Below are positions 1 through 9,686 of a DNA stretch of 9,686 bases, in pieces; the stretch's first letter is position 1; every line of letters starts with the position of its first letter. The DNA is from a virus (lineage: Duplodnaviria > Heunggongvirae > Uroviricota > Caudoviricetes). Below the pieces are notes generated by a model that searched no databases, had not been told where the DNA came from, and saw only the letters and a program-made list of their open reading frames with translations. Location of the stretch: positions 1 through 9,686 of the IMG/VR virus record IMGVR_UViG_2690316049_000001, one strand, 5' to 3'. Position numbers and translations under genes: made by a program.

Positions 1-37
1 GCGAAGGTCGTAGGTTCGACTCCTATTATCGGCACCA
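1..37 (+). tRNA. thrW: 3' end of a tRNA gene (T-arm, acceptor 3' strand, encoded CCA), probably tRNA-Thr; truncated by the window start; prophage attachment side
   Basis: Positions 1-37 read gcgaaggtcgtaGGTTCGACTCCtattatcggcaCCA: a T-loop TTCGACT flanked by a 5-bp T-stem, a 7-nt acceptor 3' strand and CCA. The anticodon is outside the window, so the Thr assignment rests on recalled similarity to the thrW 3' end used as a P22-type attB. A tyrosine integrase converges on it from 52. Confidence 0.7.
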
Positions 38-51
38 TTTAAATCAATAAG

Positions 52-1215
52 TTACACATCATTAGTACCTTCCTTATTTTTTGACTGGGACAAATTTGGG
101 ACCGATGGGTTCAGGATCGAGTCTATTTGCCGTGCGTGTTCGGTAAGGTGATTAGGTGCAAGGTGAGCATATCGACGAACCATTTCGATAGACTCCCAGC
201 CTCCCATTTCCTGTAACACTGACAACGGGACTCCGGCTTGAACCAGCCAACTTGCCCAGGTGTGTCTCAAGTCGTGAAATCTGAAATCATCAATACCAGC
301 CCGTCTCAGCGCCGCTTTCCAGGCTGTGTTTGCGTCATACCGCATCTTCCTTACTGTTGGCGCTTTCGTTCCGTCTGGTTTGGTACAGCTTTCCTTGTAC
401 ACAAATACCCAACGGTGATGATTCCCGATTTGTTTTTTCAAAACGCGACATGCAGTATCATTCAGCGCAACGCCGATTGCGCGGTTTGATTTACTCTCTT
501 CTGGGTTTATCCATGCCACCCGGCGCTGCATATCTATTTGTTGCCATTCAAGGTTGATGATGTTCGAGCGTCTTAAGCCTGTTGCCAGTGCAAATTCAAC
601 AACAGACTTTAATGGCTCCGGACATTCATCAATCAGCCTTTGTGCTTCATGGGGCTCCAGCCAGCGGATCCGTTTATTCTTTGGTTGAGGCACTTTAATA
701 ATTGGTGCCTTATCCAGCATTTTCCATTCACGCTCTGCGGCTCTTAGTAGGGCCTTTATAAATGAAAGATGCGTAGCCTTCGTTGCAACGGACGCTGGTT
801 TTGGCGTGTATTCTGGAACAGGTTTCCCTTTTTTTCTGCATGCTTCTGCCCTGAGTTTCCAGTTTTCCTCATGACGCCGGTTCGTCATTTTCTGCATTGC
901 TGAATAAATTTTTGATTCAGTAATGTCTCTTAGTTGCATTCCTGCGAAATGTTGAAGCCAGAATCCGATCCGGCTTTTGTCATCGTCCAGTGATTTTTTA
1001 TGTGCTTTCTCTTCAAGCCACCTGACACACGCTTCCTCGAACGTTATATCAGGTATTTCACCAAGTTTGCTGACCCGCCATGCTTCAGCCTTTAGCTTGT
1101 CATGGAGTTCTGTCGCCTGCCTTTTGTCCTTTGTTCCAAGAGACTGTTTAAATCTTTTACCGTTCGGCAATGTGAAACTGGCGTACCATATTTCACCTCT
1201 GCGGAAGAGTGACAT
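52..1215 (-). CDS. int: Tyrosine site-specific integrase (P22-type)
   Basis: 387-aa ORF. C-terminal catalytic signature is visible in the translation ([11 protein letters not shown] ... MVRRYAHL, i.e. H-x-x-R and the Tyr nucleophile). N-terminus [31 protein letters not shown] matches my recollection of P22-family Int. SD GAGGA lies 6 nt upstream of the ATG at 1215. Position is immediately next to the tRNA 3' end. Confidence 0.93.
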
Positions 1216-1442
1216 TTTCTTTCCTCTGTTATGCCATCACCCGCGCTCACCTGGACAGTATGCAGCGGAGACTGAAGAGCCGCAATGCAGGCTTGTCGTG
1301 TTGTGAGGTAAGGAGATTTATTCTTAGTGGGATCTTTGCGTGTTGCCTGAAGACGCCCTGTGCGTATCCAGTTAATGGCAGTCGGTCTGGATATCTTGAG
1401 AAAATGACAGGCCTCATCGAGTGTGAGGCTGTATGGCTCCAT
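1092..1442 (-). CDS. xis: Excisionase / Xis-type HTH protein
   Basis: Internal start [33 protein letters not shown] is an excisionase/AlpA-type HTH. SD GAGGTG lies 6 nt upstream of the ATG at 1442..1440. This ATG overlaps the stop of the upstream gene (TAATG). The listed upstream extension to 1526 has no RBS. The 3' end overlaps the int start by 124 nt in a different frame. Confidence 0.8.
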
Positions 1443-1786
1443 TATTTCACCTCTTGCTGTGACATTGTTGAAAAATGGATACCAGCTCGTTGCTGCCAGA
1501 CGATCCAACCGAGAGTCATATCCCATGCCATGTATTCGTTATCGCCGTTTTTTGCTCTCCGACGATCGACTGTTTTACCGAAACGCTTTTCCATAAATAA
1601 TTCATAGGCTGCGCGTTCATCTGGCTCAACTTCCAGAGATGCCAGTGCAATCCGTGCCAGTTCTAAATCATTTTCAAGCTCAGCGCGAATCTCAGCGAAT
1701 GCACTCTGTGTTAAGGCGAACTCAATGCTCTGCACTTTATTCCGTGCGCGCTCAAGCAGTGCATGGTAGTTAATTTCGGTTGTCAT
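1442..1786 (-). CDS. Hypothetical early-left phage protein (114 aa)
   Basis: Complete ORF with SD GAGG upstream. Its ATG overlaps the stop of the upstream PAPS-reductase-like gene (ATGA) and its stop overlaps the xis start, giving a translationally coupled chain. No recognisable motif. Confidence 0.65.
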   Translation of the reverse strand: MTTEINYHALLERARNKVQSIEFALTQSAFAEIRAELENDLELARIALASLEVEPDERAAYELFMEKRFGKTVDRRRAKNGDNEYMAWDMTLGWIVWQQRAGIHFSTMSQQEVK

Positions 1787-2661
1787 ACCCCTACCTCTTT
1801 GAATTCCAATTCCAATTGATCACCCCAGATTTCACATGACTCTGAACACGAGCCGGTATCGAATCGCCTGGCCTGTACCATCGCCTGATACAAATTTCTG
1901 TAGTCGCTGTTGGCAGACATTCTGGCAATTCCGTCAAGCGTCAGGTGACCACGGTACATAATGTCTTTACCTGTTCTGCGATGACCATCCCTGACGTGTT
2001 TGCCTGTAACCAGCTCATTAAAAACTCGCATCAGACCTGGTTCGTCTTTACATGCAAGCCCCAGCTTTTGCGTTGACTTTTTGATGCAGAAAACACAGTT
2101 CCCGAGATGCTCCGGGATTTGCAAATCAAAAGGTTGTTTTCGCCACCACCGGATAACATCCGACTTATCAAAATCTGACAGCTCGGCAAGATACCGGACG
2201 CCCGATTTCGGTTTCAGCCTACGGGGTTCGTCTGCACGAATACCCAGCCATGTGATGTAATTACCTCGCCCGAAATGGTTATCGCAGTATTTTGTGAAAG
2301 GGATGAGTTTTAGCCTATCAGTACAGAGCGCGCCGCCGATGTATGGCGTGCCGTACTTTTTAACCATGTCCATAAACGGTTTAAGCACCGGCATTCGTGT
2401 CTGAATATCCTTTGGCTCCCATTCTGTATAACCATTTGGCTGCCCAAGCTCAGGATTTATATCGACCTGTAACACAGTTAGTGGTATGTCCCAGAACTTC
2501 ACAACCTCCCGGATAAAGCGGTATGTCAGCGGATGTTCGCAACCGGTATCCATAAAGATGTAGCAGACGTTATTGCCAGCCTTTCTTTGTTCTTCCATCA
2601 GGTGAACAAGATATGCGGATGTTCTCCCGCCAGAAAAACTAACTACATGAGTTATGCACAT
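1783..2661 (-). CDS. PP-loop ATP pyrophosphatase, PAPS-reductase-like family protein
   Basis: Chosen start MCITHVVSFSGGRTSAY at 2661 carries the PP-loop motif SGGxTS near the N-terminus. Cys pairs in the C-terminal part (CVFC, CSESC). The listed ORF extends 39 codons further upstream into the preceding gene; the internal ATG was chosen because the PP-loop normally sits at the N-terminus. The start overlaps the upstream gene stop by 10 nt. Confidence 0.78.
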   Translation of the reverse strand: MCITHVVSFSGGRTSAYLVHLMEEQRKAGNNVCYIFMDTGCEHPLTYRFIREVVKFWDIPLTVLQVDINPELGQPNGYTEWEPKDIQTRMPVLKPFMDMVKKYGTPYIGGALCTDRLKLIPFTKYCDNHFGRGNYITWLGIRADEPRRLKPKSGVRYLAELSDFDKSDVIRWWRKQPFDLQIPEHLGNCVFCIKKSTQKLGLACKDEPGLMRVFNELVTGKHVRDGHRRTGKDIMYRGHLTLDGIARMSANSDYRNLYQAMVQARRFDTGSCSESCEIWGDQLELEFKEVGV

Positions 2662-3188
2662 TTGCGTAATTCCGATAACTCGTTGAAGCGTTCCATAAAC
2701 ATCCCGTAGGCATGGCCCGGTGCCAGTGGAATAACTTTGAACATCTCTGTTGCCGGGATACCTTCCAGTACAGGCCATAAAGAGCCATCATCAAGCCCGA
2801 GATCACGGCGTTCGGTTGCCAGCATGATGAGATCGGCATATTTCACGGGCGTGCTCATAACCGGGGGCAACTCGTATTTCTCACGGATTACTGCATCTAT
2901 TTTTTCTTCCATCCGTTTATAGTCAGGAAGAAGGCGTTTCAGTGGCGCCGGGATGTCCTGGCAATACGCTTCTGTTGCATCATGCATTAACGCTTCAAAA
3001 GCAAATTCCTGCGGTACCAGTTGGCTGCAAAGCACCGCATGTTGGGCAACGCTGTAGAAATGTGAAAGATGCCCTGCAAAGCGACAGATATTTGAAAGAG
3101 AAACCGCGATATCGTTAATAACGATGTCGTCTTTATTTATCCTGTCATAATAAAAATGCTTCCCGGAAAAAGTTTTAATAAATGACAT
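2652..3188 (-). CDS. HD-domain phosphohydrolase (YfdR-like 5'-deoxynucleotidase family)
   Basis: 178 aa from the ATG at 3188, with SD GGAGAA upstream. HD motif visible (ALMHDATEAY) with an upstream His (FAGHLSHF). Length and architecture match my recollection of the cryptic-prophage protein YfdR of E. coli; this is unverified. Confidence 0.78.
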   Translation of the reverse strand: MSFIKTFSGKHFYYDRINKDDIVINDIAVSLSNICRFAGHLSHFYSVAQHAVLCSQLVPQEFAFEALMHDATEAYCQDIPAPLKRLLPDYKRMEEKIDAVIREKYELPPVMSTPVKYADLIMLATERRDLGLDDGSLWPVLEGIPATEMFKVIPLAPGHAYGMFMERFNELSELRKCA

Positions 3189-3281
3189 TTTGTTCTCCAC
3201 GTATATGCGCTGCACCGCGCTGAATTCTGGTAAAAGGAAGCCCTCACCATCCGGCGATTATTGAGTCAATTACGTTTCCAT

Positions 3282-3303
3282 AAATGCCCCCGCAGGGGCA
3301 TTT
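3282..3303 (-). terminator. Stable GC hairpin between the DUF2303-like and HD genes (possible attenuator or intra-operon terminator)
   Basis: Perfect palindrome aaatgcccc-cgca-ggggcattt: 9-bp stem, 4-nt loop, with flanking A/T runs. Function not determinable from sequence. Confidence 0.35.
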
Positions 3304-3315
3304 GCAGTAATGAAA

Positions 3316-4140
3316 TCAGGCGGTGAAAGTACCAATAAAGGTTTCTACTTTGCTGTCCTTGAATTTCTCAACAAGCAGATCACGAAATTCGTTAGCCATT
3401 TCTTCCTGCACTGCTTCCAGCTGAATAATGCGCAGAACCAGTACAGGACGATCGCCAGTGATAATGCTGAGGCGTAATTTAAACGGACGTTCTTTCAGGC
3501 CTTCAAACGGAACGCATTTAAATTCAAATGCCACAGGCATAATATCTTTGGTCTTCGCTTCGACAGACTCCATCAGGGAGCGTTTGCCGCTGAAGTCATT
3601 ATCTTCAAAATCAGCGGTCTGGTTTGCTTCAATCGTGATTTTACGGACAGCCGCAGCCGCTTTTGTTGCCTGAATAGCGTCACCATTAGCATCAAAGCCC
3701 ACAAGATAGTCTGCCCAGTCTTCAATCCATTCTGCTAGTGACTTCTGGGAGTTACGCTCGCCGTTAATAGACAACAGAGCAGAGAACGGTGCTGTCTTTT
3801 TCAGTTTGAGTGTGGCGGTGTTATCTGCGTGACCTGGTTCATCAATAGTACCCAGGTTAAGCACACTGACGGCTCGCATATTATCGGCATCGATAAAGCA
3901 GCGGGTGCCTTCATCTGCAAGATCTTTAGAGTAACGGGTAAAGTCATCGATGCTGGCAGTGGAAAGCGCACCACGGAAACGGAAGCGATTTAAATTAAAT
4001 TTTTCCAGATCATGAATGCGGAAATTCTCAGGCAATGCCACAGCATCGGCACCAATCTTACTGATAATTTCATTAACACCCTGAGCAGAAATAAGGGCAT
4101 GGATTTGATTAATTGCGGTTGCGTCTAAGTTCTGAGACAT
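3316..4140 (-). CDS. DUF2303 / YfdQ-like prophage protein (274 aa)
   Basis: Complete ORF with SD GAGGA 7 nt upstream of the ATG at 4140. Size and position, directly upstream of the HD-domain gene, match the YfdQ-YfdR arrangement recalled from E. coli cryptic prophage CPS-53. Family assignment is from memory. Confidence 0.75.
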
Positions 4141-4205
4141 AATAAGTCCTCACTATATAAAGATATTCAGTGATGAGATAAATAATCGGTTAATTAAGAA
4201 CGATA

Positions 4206-4568
4206 TTAATGACCTGCTGCGCGGAGTTTTCCGTCAGGTTCACCGGCAAGAGTCAGTAATTGTCCCTGGTCTTCCTGCAGAATAGTCAGGCGACCACCGC
4301 GATTGACATACATCGGCGTTTCGGTGGTGTCTTCTTCGGAAATTTTCCCGCGGTTAGTCGGGCGAACATATGAGAGTTTGTGTTTGATTTTCACACGGTT
4401 CTCATCAAATGGTTCGATTTCCAGGTTGAGTGAGACCTTACCTTTGGTTTTCGTGTTCATCACACCGGAAGCGACTTCACTGAGAACTGCGCCGATTTTG
4501 GTTTCAAATACGCCGCCGTCCAGCTCCCCAATAAATGCCTGCACATCAGTACTGCGTTCGCTAGCCAT
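4206..4568 (-). CDS. Hypothetical phage protein (120 aa), first gene of the leftward operon
   Basis: Internal start MASERSTDVQAF at 4568 has a strong SD (AGGAG, 7-nt spacing). The 106-codon upstream extension in the ORF track is Arg/Cys-rich translation of GC-rich DNA and has no RBS. Confidence 0.7.
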   Translation of the reverse strand: MASERSTDVQAFIGELDGGVFETKIGAVLSEVASGVMNTKTKGKVSLNLEIEPFDENRVKIKHKLSYVRPTNRGKISEEDTTETPMYVNRGGRLTILQEDQGQLLTLAGEPDGKLRAAGH

Positions 4569-4588
4569 TTTTCTGCTCCTAATCATAT

Positions 4589-4751
4589 CGACCCTGCAAG
4601 GTCGGTTGGTTTCTCCACAAAACAGAGAAGAACACCTGCGGTGGCAGCCGCCCGGATGGATTGGGTTATGAGCCCGTCGTCCGGTGATGTTCTTCTCTGT
4701 TTTGTAAAAAGAGCGGTACCAGCCGGAAGCAAGTGTACAAACTGGTACCGC
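4589..4751. other. GC-rich structured non-coding segment: three consecutive hairpins, including an 18-bp perfect inverted repeat
   Basis: Hairpin A: cgacc/ggtcg (4589-4604). Hairpin B: ACAAAACAGAGAAGAACA (4617-4634) pairs perfectly with TGTTCTTCTCTGTTTTGT (4688-4705), enclosing a 53-nt GC-rich loop with sub-stems (gcgg/ccgc, ccgga/tccgg, ggg/ccc). Hairpin C: 10-bp stem gcggtaccag/ctggtaccgc (4713-4722 with 4742-4751). No credible ORF on either strand. Confidence 0.4.
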
Positions 4752-4977
4752 GAGGACTACACACAGCATAAAGTTGTGGTGCCGGGTGCCTCCCGGTGCC
4801 TGGCGAAGGTTGCACACCAGGCGGGTGGGTATCCACAGAAGGTCGACTGTCAGCCTCAACCTTAACCCGCGTGCGCTGAGCCGCATTCACCACAACGCTA
4901 AGGATTCTCTCTGGTTGAAAATACTTAGCTGTTATGTGCCTGCTTTTAGCCACATCAGGCGAGGTGGACCTAGTTAT

Positions 4978-5021
4978 TCCCCAACAACAAGGATTTGGTT
5001 AATCTGGATATCCCCAACAAC
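4978..5021 (+). repeat. Two 11-bp direct repeats TCCCCAACAAC spaced 33 bp apart, upstream of the 5038 ORF
   Basis: Exact copies at 4978-4988 and 5011-5021, each preceded by AT. A 33-bp spacing is about three helical turns, typical for a direct-repeat transcription-factor binding pair. Confidence 0.5.
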
Positions 5022-5037
5022 TAGCTGAGTATTCAAC

Positions 5038-5559
5038 GTGATAGCTGAACTGTCTGCGGCTATGGCCGCTATAAAGGAGACTGCCGGTCTTGCTAAGGTT
5101 ATTAATGACGCGAAAACGGATGCAGAAGTTAAAGCTGCAACCATTGAACTCCAGAACAAACTAATCACGCTTCAGGCAGAATGCTTCTCTCTTGGCGATG
5201 CGATCCGCCTTCGTGATGAAGAGGTGATGCATCTCAAAGCAAAAATTGCAGAGTTTGAAGATTTTTGTGCCAAGGTAGAAGGATATGTCCTTGATCAGCT
5301 TGACTCTGGTGCTTTTGTTTACTCTAAAAATGAAATTGTGAGTGGAAAAGAAATAACTGTGCATCTGTGCCCACTTTGTTATTCCAAAAATATAAAATCG
5401 ATACTTCATCCGCTTCCAGTAGGTAAAACTTCTCATTTTCTTACAAGCCGTTGCCTTCACTGTGAAAATAAATTTCTTATGGAAAAAAATCCGATGTACG
5501 AACGACCAAGATCATTACGTGAGTTGGGGCGAGATCTGAATTCGCCTTGGATTCCTTAA
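5038..5559 (+). CDS. Hypothetical coiled-coil plus C4 zinc-ribbon protein (moron-like, convergent with cI)
   Basis: 173 codons from GTG 5038 (alternative ATG at 5062). N-terminal half is predicted helical (IELQNKLITLQAECFSLGDAIRLRDEEVMHLKAKIAEFEDF). C-terminal part has Cys-x2-Cys, 24 residues, Cys-x2-Cys (HLCPLC ... CLHC). Strongly AT-rich, unlike its neighbours. Followed by an intrinsic terminator. The start codon is uncertain because neither candidate has a strong SD. Confidence 0.6.
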   Translation: MIAELSAAMAAIKETAGLAKVINDAKTDAEVKAATIELQNKLITLQAECFSLGDAIRLRDEEVMHLKAKIAEFEDFCAKVEGYVLDQLDSGAFVYSKNEIVSGKEITVHLCPLCYSKNIKSILHPLPVGKTSHFLTSRCLHCENKFLMEKNPMYERPRSLRELGRDLNSPWIP

Positions 5560-5601
5560 ATCTTGCATTGGTTGGATGATACCCAGATTGTTAAAGAGCT
5601 A

Positions 5602-5624
5602 AGCGTCCTGTAGGGCGCTTTTTT
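5602..5624 (+). terminator. Rho-independent terminator downstream of the 5038-5559 ORF
   Basis: agcgtcc-tgta-gggcgct: 7-bp stem with one G.U pair and a 4-nt loop, followed by a run of six T (5619-5624). Confidence 0.6.
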
Positions 5625-5702
5625 GTTGCTAACGAATCATCCTGGACTTCATATGCCCCAGGCGGCTACTTCGTGGGCGTCCTGCCTGTTCGTTATCTTT
5701 GA

Positions 5703-5731
5703 TATAAAATCTAACTTAACTTAGTTGTCAT
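5703..5731 (-). promoter_or_regulatory. Candidate leftward (pL-like) promoter with an operator-like 14-mer (OL-a, CTAACTTAACTTAG, 5711-5724) in its spacer
   Basis: On the minus strand: -35 ATGACA (5731..5726), spacer, weak -10 TTTATA/TATATC (about 5708..5701). The 14-mer CTAACTTAACTTAG matches the CTAA-N5-CTTAG motif found twice in the cI-cro intergenic region. Lies just downstream of the cI stop, where OL/pL sits in lambdoid phages. Confidence 0.3.
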
Positions 5732-5789
5732 GGCAAGAGAAAACACCAAACTTTTCTTAGTTCGGTGCCTTAGTTAGAGAAGAGAGGCC

Positions 5790-6416
5790 TTAGAGTTCGT
5801 ATTGAACTCCTTTGACTACACCAATGATAAGGCAATTACCATTGATAGGGATGTTGGGATACCGAGGATTTAATGGTACTAAAAACTTTTGAGGGCCATC
5901 GATGACTAATTTTTTTACTGTAGCTTCGTTTGTTCCATCAAGTCGAGCGATGACTATTTTTCCATGACGAGGTTCTGCATCTGGATCTACAATCACTGTT
6001 GCGCCTTCTGGTATTGTTGGGAGGCCATTAGGGTTAGTCATGGAGTCACCTTTAACCTCTAATGCAAATGAGTTATCACCAACCTTTAATGATGTATCTA
6101 CCCACTTGTCCACTTCACTAAACACTTCTGCTGCCCTGCACTCAGTAAACTGCCCAGCCTGAACCCACGATATTACAGGAACTCTGCGCATGTTTGTGAC
6201 GAGTTTGCCTTCAAACTCAGCACCATAAAGAATGTAATCTATTGACGTATTGAAGAACTTCGCTAATTTCGAAAGTGCCTCCCCACCAGGGGTATTGATG
6301 TCTTTCTCCCAGTACCCCACAGCAACGTCGCTTACTCCACAAAATTTACCCAATTCTTTCTGGGACGTTCTGGTAACTCTTCTCAGAGCTTTTATACGCT
6401 GACCAACCGTTTCCAT
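5790..6416 (-). CDS. cI: CI-like prophage repressor (HTH_XRE plus S24 LexA-type autopeptidase domain)
   Basis: 208 aa. N-terminal HTH (TSQKELGKFCGVSDVAVGYWEKD). Ala-Gly cleavage site (WVQAGQF). S24 catalytic motifs visible (GDSM with the Ser, downstream Lys in TVKKL). Divergent from the cro-like gene. Confidence 0.9.
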   Translation of the reverse strand: METVGQRIKALRRVTRTSQKELGKFCGVSDVAVGYWEKDINTPGGEALSKLAKFFNTSIDYILYGAEFEGKLVTNMRRVPVISWVQAGQFTECRAAEVFSEVDKWVDTSLKVGDNSFALEVKGDSMTNPNGLPTIPEGATVIVDPDAEPRHGKIVIARLDGTNEATVKKLVIDGPQKFLVPLNPRYPNIPINGNCLIIGVVKGVQYEL

Positions 6417-6428
6417 AGGAGCACCATT

Positions 6429-6491
6429 TCTTTAATTGCTAAGTAATCTTAGTTTTTATTGACCAAAGATAGATTTGTAATTAGCATCTAA
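6429..6491. promoter_or_regulatory. OR-like operator/promoter region: two 14-bp CTAA-N5-CTTAG sites flanking a candidate pR
   Basis: OR-a CTAAGTAATCTTAG (6429-6442, palindromic outer arms) and OR-b CTAATAAAACTTAG (6478-6491). Between them: -35 TTGACC (6449-6454), 17-nt spacer, -10 TAGCAT (6472-6477). OR-b overlaps the -10 and start-site region. SD GGAGGG precedes the cro ATG at 6514. Confidence 0.5.
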
Positions 6492-6513
6492 TAAAACTTA
6501 GTTTGGAGGGCGT

Positions 6514-6714
6514 ATGACAACTGACGATATCGAAAGCTACTTCGGCAGTATTGAGAAAGTTGCTGCTTTTTTCGGCATAACAACTGAAGCCGTTTATCAG
6601 TGGCGAAACCGTCCGGGCCAGTTAATTCCAAAAGGACGTGCAGCAGAAGCTGCATATAGAACTTGCGGACGGTTGCCATTTAAACCTGAGCTTTATGAAA
6701 AATCTAATGGATAA
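6514..6714 (+). CDS. cro: Cro-like small HTH regulator (YdaS/Cro family)
   Basis: 66 aa, HTH (IEKVAAFFGITTEAVYQWRN), strong SD, divergent from the cI-like gene across the operator region. Confidence 0.85.
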   Translation: MTTDDIESYFGSIEKVAAFFGITTEAVYQWRNRPGQLIPKGRAAEAAYRTCGRLPFKPELYEKSNG

Positions 6715-7309
6715 ATCGATTAACAGAAACCACAGAACGATGAGGCTAACCGTGGGTAAGCATCACTGGAAAGTAGAAAAACAGCCTGAGTGGTACGTGA
6801 AAGCTGTCAGAAAAACTATCGCAGCGTTGCCGGGGGGTTACGCTGAAGCAGCTGACTGGCTGGATGTAACAGAGAACGCATTATTTAACCGCCTTCGTGC
6901 CGATGGCGATCAGATTTTCCCGCTGGGATGGGCAATGATTTTGCAACGTGCTGGTGGAACTCACTTCATTGCTGACGCTGTGGCGCAGTCTGCAAATGGC
7001 GTCTTTGTGTCTCTTCCTGACGTCGAGGATGTGGACAACGCCGATATTAACCAGCGTCTGCTGGAAGTCATTGAACAGATCGGCAGTTATTCAAAACAGA
7101 TTCGTTCAGCAATCGAAGACGGTGTAGTGGAACCGCATGAGAAGACAGCAATTAACGACGAGCTGTATCTCTCAATTTCGAAGCTGCAGGAGCATGCAGC
7201 ACTTGTCTACAAAATTTTTTGCATTTCAGAAAGTAATGACGCCCGCGAGTGTGCAGCTCCGGGCGTCGTGGCGTCGATTGCTTCTGGTTGTGGAGAAACT
7301 AACGCATGA
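6695..7309 (+). CDS. Early regulatory protein in the CII position (possibly CII/YdaT-like); start uncertain
   Basis: Long ORF directly after cro. Candidate starts are ATG 6695, 6707 or 6740, none with a strong SD; the listed GTG 6638 has an SD only 1 nt away. The stop overlaps the next ATG (ATGA at 7306-7309). Family assignment is positional and from weak recollection. Confidence 0.55.
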
Positions 7310-7644
7310 ACAGTTTAACAACACACTACCGTCGCTCGCAACTGATTGCGCTTCCTGTACCGGGTGGAAAAGCGAAGGTGGAGTATTGCTATGCAGTAAA
7401 TGTACCAGGTGACAGGGAAATTGTAACCCACAGCTTTGCAGAGTGGGCTGTGGGTGATTTCAACCGGCAGAAGGAGACAGTCCTTTGCGACAAGTTAACC
7501 GCTGGTTCAAAGATCACTACGGAGTGCCCGTCAGAGTCATTCGTTGGGAACCGGAAACACAACGGGTTATCTACCTCCGCGAAGGCTATGAGCATGAGTG
7601 CTTCAGCCCGCTCGAACAGTTTCGTCGTAAATTCAGGGAAATAG
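7306..7644 (+). CDS. Hypothetical protein; possible frameshifted gene (see findings)
   Basis: ATG coupled to the upstream stop (ATGA). The first ~58 residues look protein-like. The C-terminal half in this frame is low-complexity, while the -1 frame (7458-7664) encodes a protein-like sequence ending [54 protein letters not shown]. Confidence 0.45.
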
Positions 7645-7653
7645 AGGTCGGTC

Positions 7654-9686
7654 ATGAGCACTAAATTAACCGGCTATGTATGGGATGGTTGCGCTGCATC
7701 AGGCATGAAGTTATCCAGCGTGGCAATTATGGCCCGCCTGGCTGATTTCAGTAATGACGAAGGTGTGTGCTGGCCATCAATTGAAACCATTGCCCGTCAG
7801 ATTGGCGCGGGGATGAGTACCGTCAGAACGGCTATCGCACGGCTGGAAGCAGAAGGCTGGTTAACGCGTAAGGCGCGTCGCCAGGGTAACAGCGCACAGG
7901 CGGCAGCAGACTCACAAACTGCATCGGCAAACTCCGCGACAGCAGCCAAAAAATCAGAAACCAACGCGAAAAATAGCGAGGCAGCAGCAAAGAGCAGCGA
8001 AACAAACGCTAAAGCCAGCGAAACTAATGCTAAATCCAGTGAAACAAACGCGGCGAAATCTGCGGCGGACGCACTTAATTATCGCAACCAGGCGCAATTA
8101 ATTGTTGGCGATAATATCGGTCTTGGCTCAGCCCCGCGTGATTGTCCTGATATTTCCGGCAACCCATCAGGGTATATCGGATTTATGCGCATTATGAGTA
8201 ATGCAAAAGGATTTCCATCGATTGCATCCGGTGAAAGCAGTCTTACGGGGTTTATTAGTCAGGTAGATGGAACACCAGCGTATACAGGTGTATTTCAGGG
8301 ATGGGCTACGCGCTCGCTTTATACTTATCGCTGGAATCCGACAATAGGCCCGCAATGGACACGCCACGCAAGAAAAGATGAGGTTATCCGATTTCAGCGT
8401 TCAAGCGACACAAGAACCATCATTTTATCTACTGACGTTCAGGCGGACGGCTGTTACTTACAGGTTGATGCTGACGGTCAGTGGGGCGCATTTAACCCTA
8501 AAGCTGGTAGATGGCAACCGCTCGCAGTTGCGCAAGGTGGCACAGGGGCGAATGATGCAAGTACAGCGCGCTCTAAACTTGAAGTCATGTTTGAAGCAAA
8601 AACTGGCCTTGATGCGAATACGAACTTAAACGATATAAAAGGTACTACAGCCGGTTTTTATTACCAACCAATGTCTGCCAACGCAAAGCCAGAACTAAAT
8701 TACCCGATACAGCTTGCTGGTGCATTGTTAGTGCAAAGAACTGGTGCTAATGGTAGTGATGGTTGTATCCAGAGCTATTTTGTATATAACAATTCATCAA
8801 TTCTTTATAGAAGGATATATACCAGCACACAAGGTTGGAGTGTATGGAAAAAAATAGTATTAACAGAAAGAATTGAAGAAGGCGAATCGACTACTTACGT
8901 TTATTCGAATTACTCACCATCAGCGCCACGACTTCAGGTGTCAACATCTGGATTGTGGGGTTGCCATAACGGATCGTCATGGGTTCCATTACCTATTGGA
9001 CAAGGAGGCACTAATGCGGCAACTGTTGATGGTGCCAGAACGAATCTTGGCTTAGGTAGGAACAACAGCCCTCAACTTAACAGTCTATTTCTTGATAGAT
9101 ATAGTGATTCGACCAATACATACACATCTAGTGGAATTCTCCATACAAGACTGTTAGCAACTGACAGCACTGTGCGTCTTGGTGCTGATATGTATGTTGA
9201 AACTTTATCAAATGAGCCAGGTCAATTAACAATAAGGTTTACATACGATGGTTCAACTGGTGCTTCAAAATATCTAAACCTTAATTCAGAAGGTAATTTA
9301 ATTGTAGATAGTGCGATACTGAAATCAACGGTTGAAAAACCTTTACAAATAAGGAGCGCTAACCCAGCAATAAGATTTAATGAAACAGATCGCCCGGCTA
9401 ACACGCCTACTTATACTCTCATTGCTAATGCTGGCGACTGGTTTATTCAGAAACGCGATTATGATGATGCCGGAAGCGTTAGTAACGCAATTGCATATAA
9501 TTTCGCAAACGACAGAATTGATGTGCAGAATCTTAAAGCGTCTGGGTTAATTACAGCTAACTCAGGAATTGCAACATTAACAGGTCATGACTGGAACGCT
9601 CAGCATACTGATAACGTCGACAAATTTAGATCAATTGCAGGCAGTACAAACGGCCCGGCAGGCTCTATGGTTCTTGGCGGCATTCA
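7654..9686 (+). CDS. In-frame chimeric ORF: N-terminal HTH domain (replication-initiator-like) fused to a side-tail-fibre body; 3' end beyond the window
   Basis: Translated by hand: ATG 7654 with SD GAGG, no stop codon to 9686 (at least 677 codons). Residues 1-79 carry an HTH (PSIETIARQIGAGMSTVRTAIARLEAEGWLTRKARRQGN). From about residue 80 the sequence is tail-fibre-like: KSETNAKNSE / SSETNAKASETNAKSSETNA repeats, then two modules with the fibre motif QGGTGANDASTARSKL and QGGTNAATVDGARTNLGLG. Absent from the ORF track only because it has no stop in the window. Confidence 0.75.
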   Translation, partial: MSTKLTGYVWDGCAASGMKLSSVAIMARLADFSNDEGVCWPSIETIARQIGAGMSTVRTAIARLEAEGWLTRKARRQGNSAQAAADSQTASANSATAAKKSETNAKNSEAAAKSSETNAKASETNAKSSETNAAKSAADALNYRNQAQLIVGDNIGLGSAPRDCPDISGNPSGYIGFMRIMSNAKGFPSIASGESSLTGFISQVDGTPAYTGVFQGWATRSLYTYRWNPTIGPQWTRHARKDEVIRFQRSSDTRTIILSTDVQADGCYLQVDADGQWGAFNPKAGRWQPLAVAQGGTGANDASTARSKLEVMFEAKTGLDANTNLNDIKGTTAGFYYQPMSANAKPELNYPIQLAGALLVQRTGANGSDGCIQSYFVYNNSSILYRRIYTSTQGWSVWKKIVLTERIEEGESTTYVYSNYSPSAPRLQVSTSGLWGCHNGSSWVPLPIGQGGTNAATVDGARTNLGLGRNNSPQLNSLFLDRYSDSTNTYTSSGILHTRLLATDSTVRLGADMYVETLSNEPGQLTIRFTYDGSTGASKYLNLNSEGNLIVDSAILKSTVEKPLQIRSANPAIRFNETDRPANTPTYTLIANAGDWFIQKRDYDDAGSVSNAIAYNFANDRIDVQNLKASGLITANSGIATLTGHDWNAQHTDNVDKFRSIAGSTNGPAGSMVLGGI
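7948..8058 (+). repeat. Imperfect tandem repeats encoding (K/A/S)SETNA(K) heptad-like units inside the tail-fibre portion
   Basis: Four consecutive units at nucleotide level (tcagaaaccaacgcgaaa, agcgaaacaaacgctaaa, agcgaaactaatgctaaa, agtgaaacaaacgcggcgaaa). Such repeats are typical of the proximal shaft of lambda Stf-like fibres. Confidence 0.6.

Follow-up and report, generated by a model that had tools for sequence, protein, structure and literature searches.

A probable modular non-coding RNA locus at the head of the leftward early operon of a lambdoid prophage

Genomic setting of the block

The subject of this analysis was a structured block on the minus strand (positions 4967-4589) of a 9,686-nt stretch of DNA from a virus of the Caudoviricetes (IMG/VR record IMGVR_UViG_2690316049_000001, positions 1 to 9,686). 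The whole stretch is called the window, and all window positions refer to its 9,686 nt; L numbers denote loci of relatives. The block stands at the head of the leftward early operon of a lambdoid prophage and was interpreted as a probable modular locus of non-coding RNA.

The gene map was based on Pfam searches over the open reading frames (ORFs) of the window and on public annotation. It places int at 55-1215 (-), followed in map order by a gene of a xis-like helix-turn-helix protein, a PAPS-reductase-like gene, yfdR and yfdQ (DUF2303), and yfdP at 4206-4568 (-). The true start of yfdP is the ATG at 4568-4566, with the Shine-Dalgarno sequence AGGAG at 4580-4576. On the other side of the block lie an unclassified moron ORF of 173 aa (5038-5559, +; ORF list and Pfam), an S24/LexA-type cI (5790-6416, -) and cro (6514-6714, +). 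The leftward early operon is thus ordered yfdP-yfdQ-yfdR...xis-int, and according to the gene map the block heads the sole leftward route from the immunity region to xis/int. A first-pass annotation, made from the letters only, had placed the block at the leader position of this operon and had seen no N-like gene. The map agreed with the former, and no N-like gene was found between cI and the block in the ORF list or by Pfam over the window ORFs.

The query 4570-4970 was 100% identical to a prophage of E. coli WCHEC020031 integrated beside tRNA-Thr and proA, and 95-97% identical to SfIV, SfV and related phages. Among 5426 complete E. coli genomes, 2781 had a match to the locus.

Repeats, composition and folding

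The repeats listed in the first-pass annotation were recovered. The 18-bp perfect inverted repeat (4617-4634 with 4688-4705), with 53 nt enclosed beyond it, is the core of a repeat that in full covers 25 nt (4617-4641 with 4681-4705) at 88% complementarity. The GGTACC-centred hairpin has 10 perfect bp (4713-4722 with 4742-4751), and the clustered GGTGCC repeats were located as CCGGGTGCCT at 4782 and CCCGGTGCCT at 4792. The two AGGCG(G/A)GGTGG copies were found near 4813-4828 and 4951-4967 and represent a short two-copy family that carries no weight by itself. The GC enrichment was also present, but it was moderate rather than strong as had been claimed (0.53-0.575 over 4501-4900 compared with about 0.37-0.50 in the flanks).

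Both strands were folded, and z-scores of -7.0 for the minus strand and -4.0 for the plus strand were obtained against dinucleotide shuffles. The earlier proposal of a non-coding structured RNA candidate was upheld, as the block is a structured RNA all of whose features are sensible on the minus strand. It could not be regarded as one block, since at least four separable modules that recombine independently were recognized.

A covarying five-helix junction

The core of the block is a five-helix junction (4773-4896, -), defined by a covariance model and by folds. It consists of the closing helix P1 (4896-4888 with 4781-4773), P2 (4884-4869), the variable helices P3 (4868-4823) and P4 (4822-4798), and P5 (4796-4782), which has 5 bp and an almost invariant AGGCA loop; all of these are on the minus strand. 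The GGTGCC repeats correspond to P5 and the 3' strand of P1.

Junction loci were retrieved by a motif derived from the element, resulting in 17 genome loci and 120 IMG/VR loci. They comprised 113 unique versions, which fell into 25 clusters when grouped at 88% identity. The retrieval pattern fixed P2 and part of P1, which bears on the apparent conservation of these two helices. A covariance model, R1, was built on eight sequences and found 71 junction copies in 68 sources. A check of homologues for compensatory changes, suggested in the first-pass annotation, revealed strong covariation: in the R1 alignment, which is fitted to the model, 96.8% of the cells were paired, compared with 30-44% when the partners were slid, compensatory changes occurred in 20 of the 31 pairs, and the covariation score was 0.468 against at most 0.09. 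Among the paired cells, 120 of 1850 were G-U in the minus-strand reading, which fixes the minus strand and disfavours a DNA-level element. The minimum-energy folds of the 25 cluster representatives, run independently of each other, mostly contained P1, an AAU joiner, P2, P3, P4 and P5; a few representatives, such as L013 and L012, were exceptions.

The junction was found three times in E. coli K-12 MG1655. In the Qin prophage 17 nt separate it from dicF upstream and 20 nt from dicB downstream (R1 71.9 bits), in Rac the distances are 12 nt from kilS and 25 nt to kilR (R1 76.8 bits), and in e14 it lies beneath ymfH (R1 139 bits). The genes downstream of the junction in relatives were DicB, KilR-like, Kil, YfdP-like and RdgC-like, all of them early-left genes. 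Several copies may occur within a few kb, as in L120 (three) and L078 (two).

A second junction upstream of dicF in Qin was considered, where the position and the P1-like strings GUUGUGGC/GCUGCAAC are suggestive; R1 gave only 6.7 bits and the junction is not claimed. In Rac (L152 2971-2990, upstream of the KilS seed) and in L036, the sequence GUUGU-AAAUA-AC(G/A)AC stands where the window has the full junction. This stub looks like both strands of P1 joined by a pentaloop, as would be left after a neat deletion of the junction. Upstream of the junction, Rfam tRNA matches of ~126 nt, well beyond the usual tRNA length, were recorded at 40 bits in L082 (1800-1925) and L017 (4415-4541). The T-arm-like strings GGTTCGATTCC and GTTCGATTCGGAC were seen upstream of the junction in Klebsiella-type variants, with similar strings in L003 and L006. 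ARAGORN reported no tRNA in the window and six loci, L003 and L006 among them.

The 3' small RNA module

The junction is followed by a single-stranded linker (4752-4772, -) that contains the 14-mer UGCUGUGUGUAGUC (4768-4755), a candidate seed or Hfq-binding segment. With up to 2 mismatches allowed, the 14-mer was found in 60 of the 113 unique loci, and it was invariant while the spacer to P1 ranged from about 4 to 30 nt. No site complementary to it was found within the window besides itself. An intrinsic terminator (4706-4751, -) comes next and consists of the GGTACC hairpin with a 12-bp stem and the tail UCUUUUU, with a predicted energy of -20.5 kcal/mol. In ST64B, Kp4866-6 and phiES15 the stem sequences of the terminator differ yet pair, and the U-tract is conserved.

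The first-pass annotation had left open that the block was an unclassified non-coding RNA. This was not the case, as positions 4926-4704 (-) scored above the gathering threshold of the Rfam family STnc100 (RF02076; 49.1 bits against 47, E 2e-8, covering the entire model, positions 1-206) and the 3' module is a homologue of KilS. The STnc100 match includes the junction and ends exactly at the terminator U-tract. The consensus fold of the family was present, with a closing helix, internal hairpins and a 3' terminator: the GGTACC hairpin with UCUUUUU is the terminator of the model, and the GGTGCC repeats are its conserved hairpin CACCGGGAGGCACCCGG. STnc100 and PasD have been described as prophage-encoded small RNAs (sRNAs), PasD having been detected with Hfq by the ligation and sequencing of interacting RNAs (RIL-seq), and a structural link between the two was reported in a 2026 preprint. 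They resemble the window element in belonging to lambdoid prophages and in having a structured domain followed by a terminator. In contrast, the window sequence at the P2 position is unlike the STnc100 consensus of Rfam, the linker with the seed also differs, and STnc100 and PasD have been described near Q, stx and the lysis region, whereas the window element belongs to the early-left operon.

KilS (b4833, Rac prophage of K-12) has been verified by northern blotting and detected by Hfq RIL-seq. Its 3' 65 nt aligned to window positions 4768-4706 with a score of 51, while shuffles gave a mean of 15.6, a standard deviation of 2.2 and a maximum of 26, so the score lies ~16 standard deviations above the mean. 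KilS shares the 14-mer UGCUGUGUGUAGUC and a homologous terminator, GGCGGYAYCAGUUU...CCGCCCUUUUU, with the window. The neighbourhoods are also alike, with an opposite-strand gene at the sieB position upstream in both, and with the junction and an early-left gene downstream in Rac. Nothing in the window corresponds to the 5' 33 nt of the annotated 98-nt KilS. KilS also has a putative extended -10 element TGTTAAATT, identified by eye, within a Rac-specific insert that is absent from the window. The order differs as well. In Rac the junction comes after KilS and the stub GUUGU-AAAUA-ACGAC before it, whereas in the window the full junction precedes the module, and the downstream gene is kilR in Rac and yfdP in the window.

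The module occupies the operon slot of DicF. Rfam DicF matches of 63-77 bits were found directly 5' of the junction in L013, L027 and L043, and in L027 the junction is followed by a 62-aa ORF at the position where the MG1655 gene is annotated as dicB. In L036, L039 and L141, where the flanks are near-identical, the window-type module itself stood in place of DicF. DicF in Qin uses the same slot of the dicBF operon, directly 5' of the junction and a cell-division-inhibitor gene, and the 5' arm of the terminator is common to both. The terminator shares GCGGTAYCAGTTT with DicF, and 5 of 2000 shuffles scored as high. DicF differs in its seed, the ftsZ-type seed being absent from the window. Two forms of DicF arise from the transcript of the dicBF operon, one of 190 nt through RNase III and one of 53 nt through RNase E, with a terminator-defined 3' end; the junction and module of the window together measure ~195 nt.

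The 14-mer is identical to nt 62-75 of RprA, a core-genome sRNA induced by Rcs/Cpx. The exact identity extends over 14 nt in the window, 16 nt in e14 and 19 nt in phiES15, all within RprA nt 60-78, and by our own estimate about 0.007 chance matches of this kind are expected in the window. In both RNAs the identical nucleotides lie directly 5' of the terminator. RprA differs in its locus and promoter, and its 5' two-thirds, including the mapped hdeD seed, are absent from the window. The identity suggests phage mimicry of a host regulator; nothing relevant on phage sRNA mimics or homologues of RprA was found in the literature searched. At least four kinds of seed were found in the linker slot, namely RprA-like, DicF, CAUGCCAGUGCAAUC (L109) and GUUGCCUAAGCAGUC (L010).

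In the window subtype only, a boxA-like string CGCUCUUUUUACAA (4704-4716, -) lies over the terminator tail and resembles the rrn/lambda boxA GCUCUUUAACAA. The likeness is probably a coincidence, because most relatives read CCGCCCUUUUU or similar there.

The long-hairpin leader and the small hairpin before yfdP

A Y-shaped leader, module H, is formed by the inverted repeat at 4617-4705 (-) and lies outside the STnc100 match. It is composed of the long stem S1 (4705-4681 with 4641-4617, 18 bp perfect and about 23 bp in total), the inner GGG..CCC hairpin Ha (4684-4652) and the hairpin Hb (4651-4638), all on the minus strand. When 20 diverse copies were aligned with plain MAFFT, with no fitting to a model, 97.3% of the cells were paired, compared with 41-51% after sliding, and 9 of the 32 pairs had compensatory changes; the covariation of the long hairpin was moderate. 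G-U pairs on the minus strand made up 46 of its 640 paired cells. Module H and the terminator move as a unit (query positions 1-192), which was found at 97-98% identity in mEp460, cdtI and Stx2 phages.

Directly 3' of S1, a conserved single-stranded stretch GGAGAAACCAAC (4605-4616, -) was retained with small variations in most versions of module H in relatives, and it also followed unrelated long hairpins in L010 and L012. The conserved motif after module H reads GGAGAAAC(C/U)AAC. A small hairpin, CGACC-UUGCAG-GGUCG (4589-4604, -), is located just upstream of the yfdP Shine-Dalgarno sequence. At least eight stems of this hairpin were found in relatives, all of them pairing (e.g. GGCGG/CCGCC, CCGCCCC/GGGGGC, UCCUU/AGGA and GCCA/UGGC), and the loop was mostly U(G)GCAG despite the freely varying stems. 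The hairpin precedes the Shine-Dalgarno sequence of whichever gene comes first, be it yfdP-like, RdgC-like or, in e14, xisE. In L017 and L052 the 3' arm of the hairpin, AGAGGA, appears to be the Shine-Dalgarno sequence itself.

In the leader of the lambda N gene, a long near-perfect RNase III hairpin is located between an upstream regulatory RNA element (nutL) and the ribosome-binding site of the first gene of the pL operon. The long hairpin of the window is similarly placed between an upstream RNA element and the ribosome-binding site of the first gene. Unlike lambda, the window has no N gene, and the boxA-like CGCUCUUUUUACAA is not conserved. No boxB-like pentaloop hairpin was seen when the sequence was read.

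The 5' block and hairpin P0

The upstream end of the locus is a 5' block CCACCUCGCCUGAUGUGGCUAAAAGCAGGCACAUAACA (4930-4967, -), conserved in 25 unique contexts; in 27 of the 113 unique loci the junction motif follows it at a distance of 74 nt. It can form the hairpin GCCUG(13 nt)CAGGC, the stem of which is compensatory in relatives (GCCUU/AAGGC in L137 and GCCCGG/CCGGGC in Rac). In several contexts, L041, L093 and L072 among them, the upstream sequence was unrelated up to the first C of the block, and the block is a candidate for the RNA's 5' end. It is separated from the junction by hairpin P0 (4897-4929, -; GCUAAGUAUUUUC / GAGAAUCCUUAGC, 13 bp with 2 mismatches), which an inverted repeat forms. 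Unrelated long hairpins occupied the P0 position in the phiES15, Kluyvera and Rac versions. A pairing of the 5' block with the 14-mer, suggested by the minimum-energy fold, was rejected, since its -12.1 kcal/mol was matched by 31% of the shuffles.

Coding potential and annotation

The earlier statement that the block has no credible ORF was only partly accurate. Mechanical ORFs do exist, namely one of 226 aa (4206-4886, -) and one of 95 aa (4666-4953, -) in the ORF list, and two further ones on the plus strand of the block. None of the frames was kept open or in register across diverged relatives: no conserved reading frame crossed the block among the 25 cluster representatives, most of which had stops in all three frames.

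Public annotation has nevertheless drawn coding sequences over the structured RNA. These are ymfH b1142 of MG1655 e14 (L151 2570-2881), orf34/35 of SfIV (L001 4647-5327 and 5215-5559) and a protein gene in L145 (5014-5324). The copy of the window is labelled a frameshifted hypothetical protein by the Prokaryotic Genome Annotation Pipeline (PGAP). The ymfH coding sequence extends over four elements of the structured RNA (junction, seed, an intrinsic terminator and long hairpin), and the ymfH literature contains operon and iModulon membership only. It was concluded that the coding sequences drawn over the block, ymfH included, are probably spurious, and that the locus labelled as hypothetical or frameshifted proteins and as ymfH is almost certainly a non-coding RNA.

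Interpretation

Based on these results, it was proposed, with a rough probability of 0.65, that the block is a modular non-coding RNA locus of the minus strand that heads the leftward early operon and combines a terminated, processed Hfq-type sRNA with an attenuator or leader. Leftward transcription would result in an RNA of ~260 nt containing the 5' block, P0, the junction, the RprA-identical 14-mer and the intrinsic terminator. A stop at the GGTACC hairpin would release an sRNA of about the size of STnc100, the analogue being the long DicF form of 190 nt, and trimming by RNase E or RNase III would give a KilS/DicF-like sRNA of 65-100 nt, which would bind Hfq and act in trans via the 14-mer. 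This mechanism was proposed because of the DicF precedent and the ~195-nt size of the window composite. Read-through polymerases would enter a second conserved leader, in which the Y-shaped long hairpin is followed by the GGAGAAAC motif and then by the small hairpin with the UGCAG loop. This leader probably serves the first ORF as an RNase III or translation-control element, and the terminator would thus double as an attenuator or insulator for the downstream toxic and recombination genes. The e14 operon is regulated by prophage induction and is a member of the YmfT iModulon. Of this picture, the structures with their strand, conservation and covariation, the relationship to KilS and STnc100 and the slot in common with DicF are results of the analysis; synthesis and processing of the RNA, Hfq binding, trans action and an RNase III role of the long hairpin are inferred.

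Several results weigh against this proposal. The STnc100 score was marginal, and relatives at about 76-96% identity gave sub-threshold scores of 35-41 bits (SfIV 38.4, sal3 37.5, phiES15 40.6 and ST64B 35.1). The Rfam DicF model (threshold 48 bits) had no match in 4400-5200 at E up to 10, and the RprA model (threshold 70 bits) had no match in the window and a sub-threshold 41 bits in phiES15. The hdeD seed of RprA maps outside nt 62-75, in a stem-loop ~31 nt from the 5' end. The mean unpaired probability of the 14-mer was 0.3, meaning that it is largely paired in the single-sequence ensemble, and the U-tail has just 5 consecutive U. A consensus scan of the minus strand over 4927-5700 detected no sigma-70 promoter, and the 25 upstream variants, read by eye, had only weak -10 candidates and no convincing promoter. 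Finally, the primary role of the junction may be in cis, because in many relatives it directly precedes an ORF and has no terminator.

The last point leads to a serious alternative, in which the junction, alone or together with the long hairpin, acts mainly in cis as a switch in the 5'-UTR. Gated by a protein, a ligand or RNase III, it would control how the downstream early genes, many of them toxic (kilR, dicB, kil and yfdP are the genes concerned), are translated or how stable their messages are, and the sRNA module would be a mere neighbour. In the relatives concerned, the junction is followed by no terminator motif, a Shine-Dalgarno sequence and an ORF start come within about 20-45 nt, and P1 reaches about 19-20 bp, which is as long as a substrate of RNase III; in K-12, dicB and kilR come immediately after the junction. 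The nucleotides that are invariant or nearly so cluster in P1 and P2, in the AAU joiner and in the loop of P5, a pattern like that of RNAs that bind a ligand or a protein, with the reservation that the retrieval pattern fixed P2 and part of P1. The small hairpin also appears to sequester the Shine-Dalgarno sequence in some variants. On the other hand, the junction of the window is separated from the ORF by the terminator and 140 nt, we know of no ligand or binding protein for it, and STnc100 and PasD have been described as sRNAs, the latter detected with Hfq. A switch of this kind is compatible with the sRNA locus proposed above rather than exclusive of it, and as the main function of the block it was considered unlikely.

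Other explanations were considered less probable still. The first-pass annotation had raised cis-acting antitermination, and an RNA similar to put of HK022 would allow the early-left operon to be read through terminators without an N protein. The lack of an N-like gene between cI and the element, the position of the element at the operon head, a good terminator between the immunity region and xis/int that must be passed, and the annotation of the ST64B repressor as similar to HK022 cI would all suit such a function. It is improbable, given that R1, run with filters off on the nun-cI-cro region of HK022, found nothing above noise (only a 13-bit match inside IS903), and that the put RNA has another anatomy, two stem-loops in a V shape of ~73 nt located at +1 of PL, which matches neither the five-helix junction nor the closed Y of the long hairpin. 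The two or three junction copies in L078 and L120, the junctions that follow DicF or KilS deep inside operons, the many relatives in which an ORF start rather than a terminator motif comes next after the junction, and the 5' block of a Hafnia phage that bears N argue against it as well. Very improbable, lastly, is a block that codes for a protein, such as a small YmfH-like protein or an N-terminal extension of YfdP, or that acts as a DNA-level site (cruciform, operator or recombination). ORFs are annotated in SfIV, in e14 (ymfH) and by PGAP, and the repeats are perfect at the DNA level; yet no frame is conserved across the 25 cluster representatives, PGAP itself calls its ORF frameshifted, and the ymfH ORF would cross an intrinsic terminator. 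A DNA-level recombination or binding site, also raised at first, is unlikely because G-U accounts for many of the minus-strand pairs in the junction and in the long hairpin, and such pairs become C-A mismatches on the other strand; together with the compensatory changes, this strand-specific share of about 6.5-7% G-U pairs points to RNA.

The sRNA class is already known from STnc100 in Rfam, KilS, DicF and the PasD-STnc100 preprint, and the locus of the window is therefore an added member of it. The literature searched contained no description of a covarying junction shared beside dicF and kilS, of a cassette-like exchange of seeds in one slot, of the RprA identity, of the conserved long-hairpin leader or of the likely misannotation of ymfH. 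The analysis corrects the annotation of a locus that occurs in about half of the complete E. coli genomes and is hidden under ymfH in K-12. STnc100/PasD, DicF, KilS and RprA, which are usually studied apart, appear as one modular system of lambdoid early-left operons, consisting of a shared structured junction and exchangeable seed-and-terminator cassettes. In addition, a well-supported structured RNA was placed directly before dicB and kilR of the reference strain, where it is genetically testable.

A further, tentative idea is that the junction has a function of its own as an RNA, namely that of a switch, gated by RNase III or sensing a factor, before the cell-division-inhibitor and early-left genes (kilR, dicB, kil, yfdP...xis-int), and that the attached module is a phage-borne copy of the RprA 3' domain. 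Prophage induction could thereby feed Hfq and the RprA-linked circuitry of envelope stress, RpoS and biofilm. This is possible but was considered rather unlikely.

Neighbouring features

The relatives ST64B, mEp460 and sal3 carry the antisense RNAs IsrK and C4 to the right of the immunity region (L002 6732-6920, L005 5684-5872 and L006 6190-6266); neither was present in the window. The 173-aa ORF (5038-5559, +) has its own terminator at 5601-5620 and no Pfam family above threshold. It has the same position and orientation as sieB in Rac and in the Hafnia phage Pocitis76, and it may be a moron of the superinfection-exclusion type.

The repeat TCCCCAACAAC was found twice without a mismatch (4978-4988 and 5011-5021, +) in the interval that separates the leftward RNA from the rightward moron, a short way upstream of the 5' block. 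The copies are 33 bp apart and flank AGATTAACC. The repeat was rejected as a cI operator, at least as a recognizable one, because it is absent from the cI-cro region. In the Klebsiella, Hafnia and Rac relatives both copies were altered together (the equivalent of CTGTAGGGGT twice) at a similar spacing, and the pair looks like putative paired binding sites for a phage-specific regulator.

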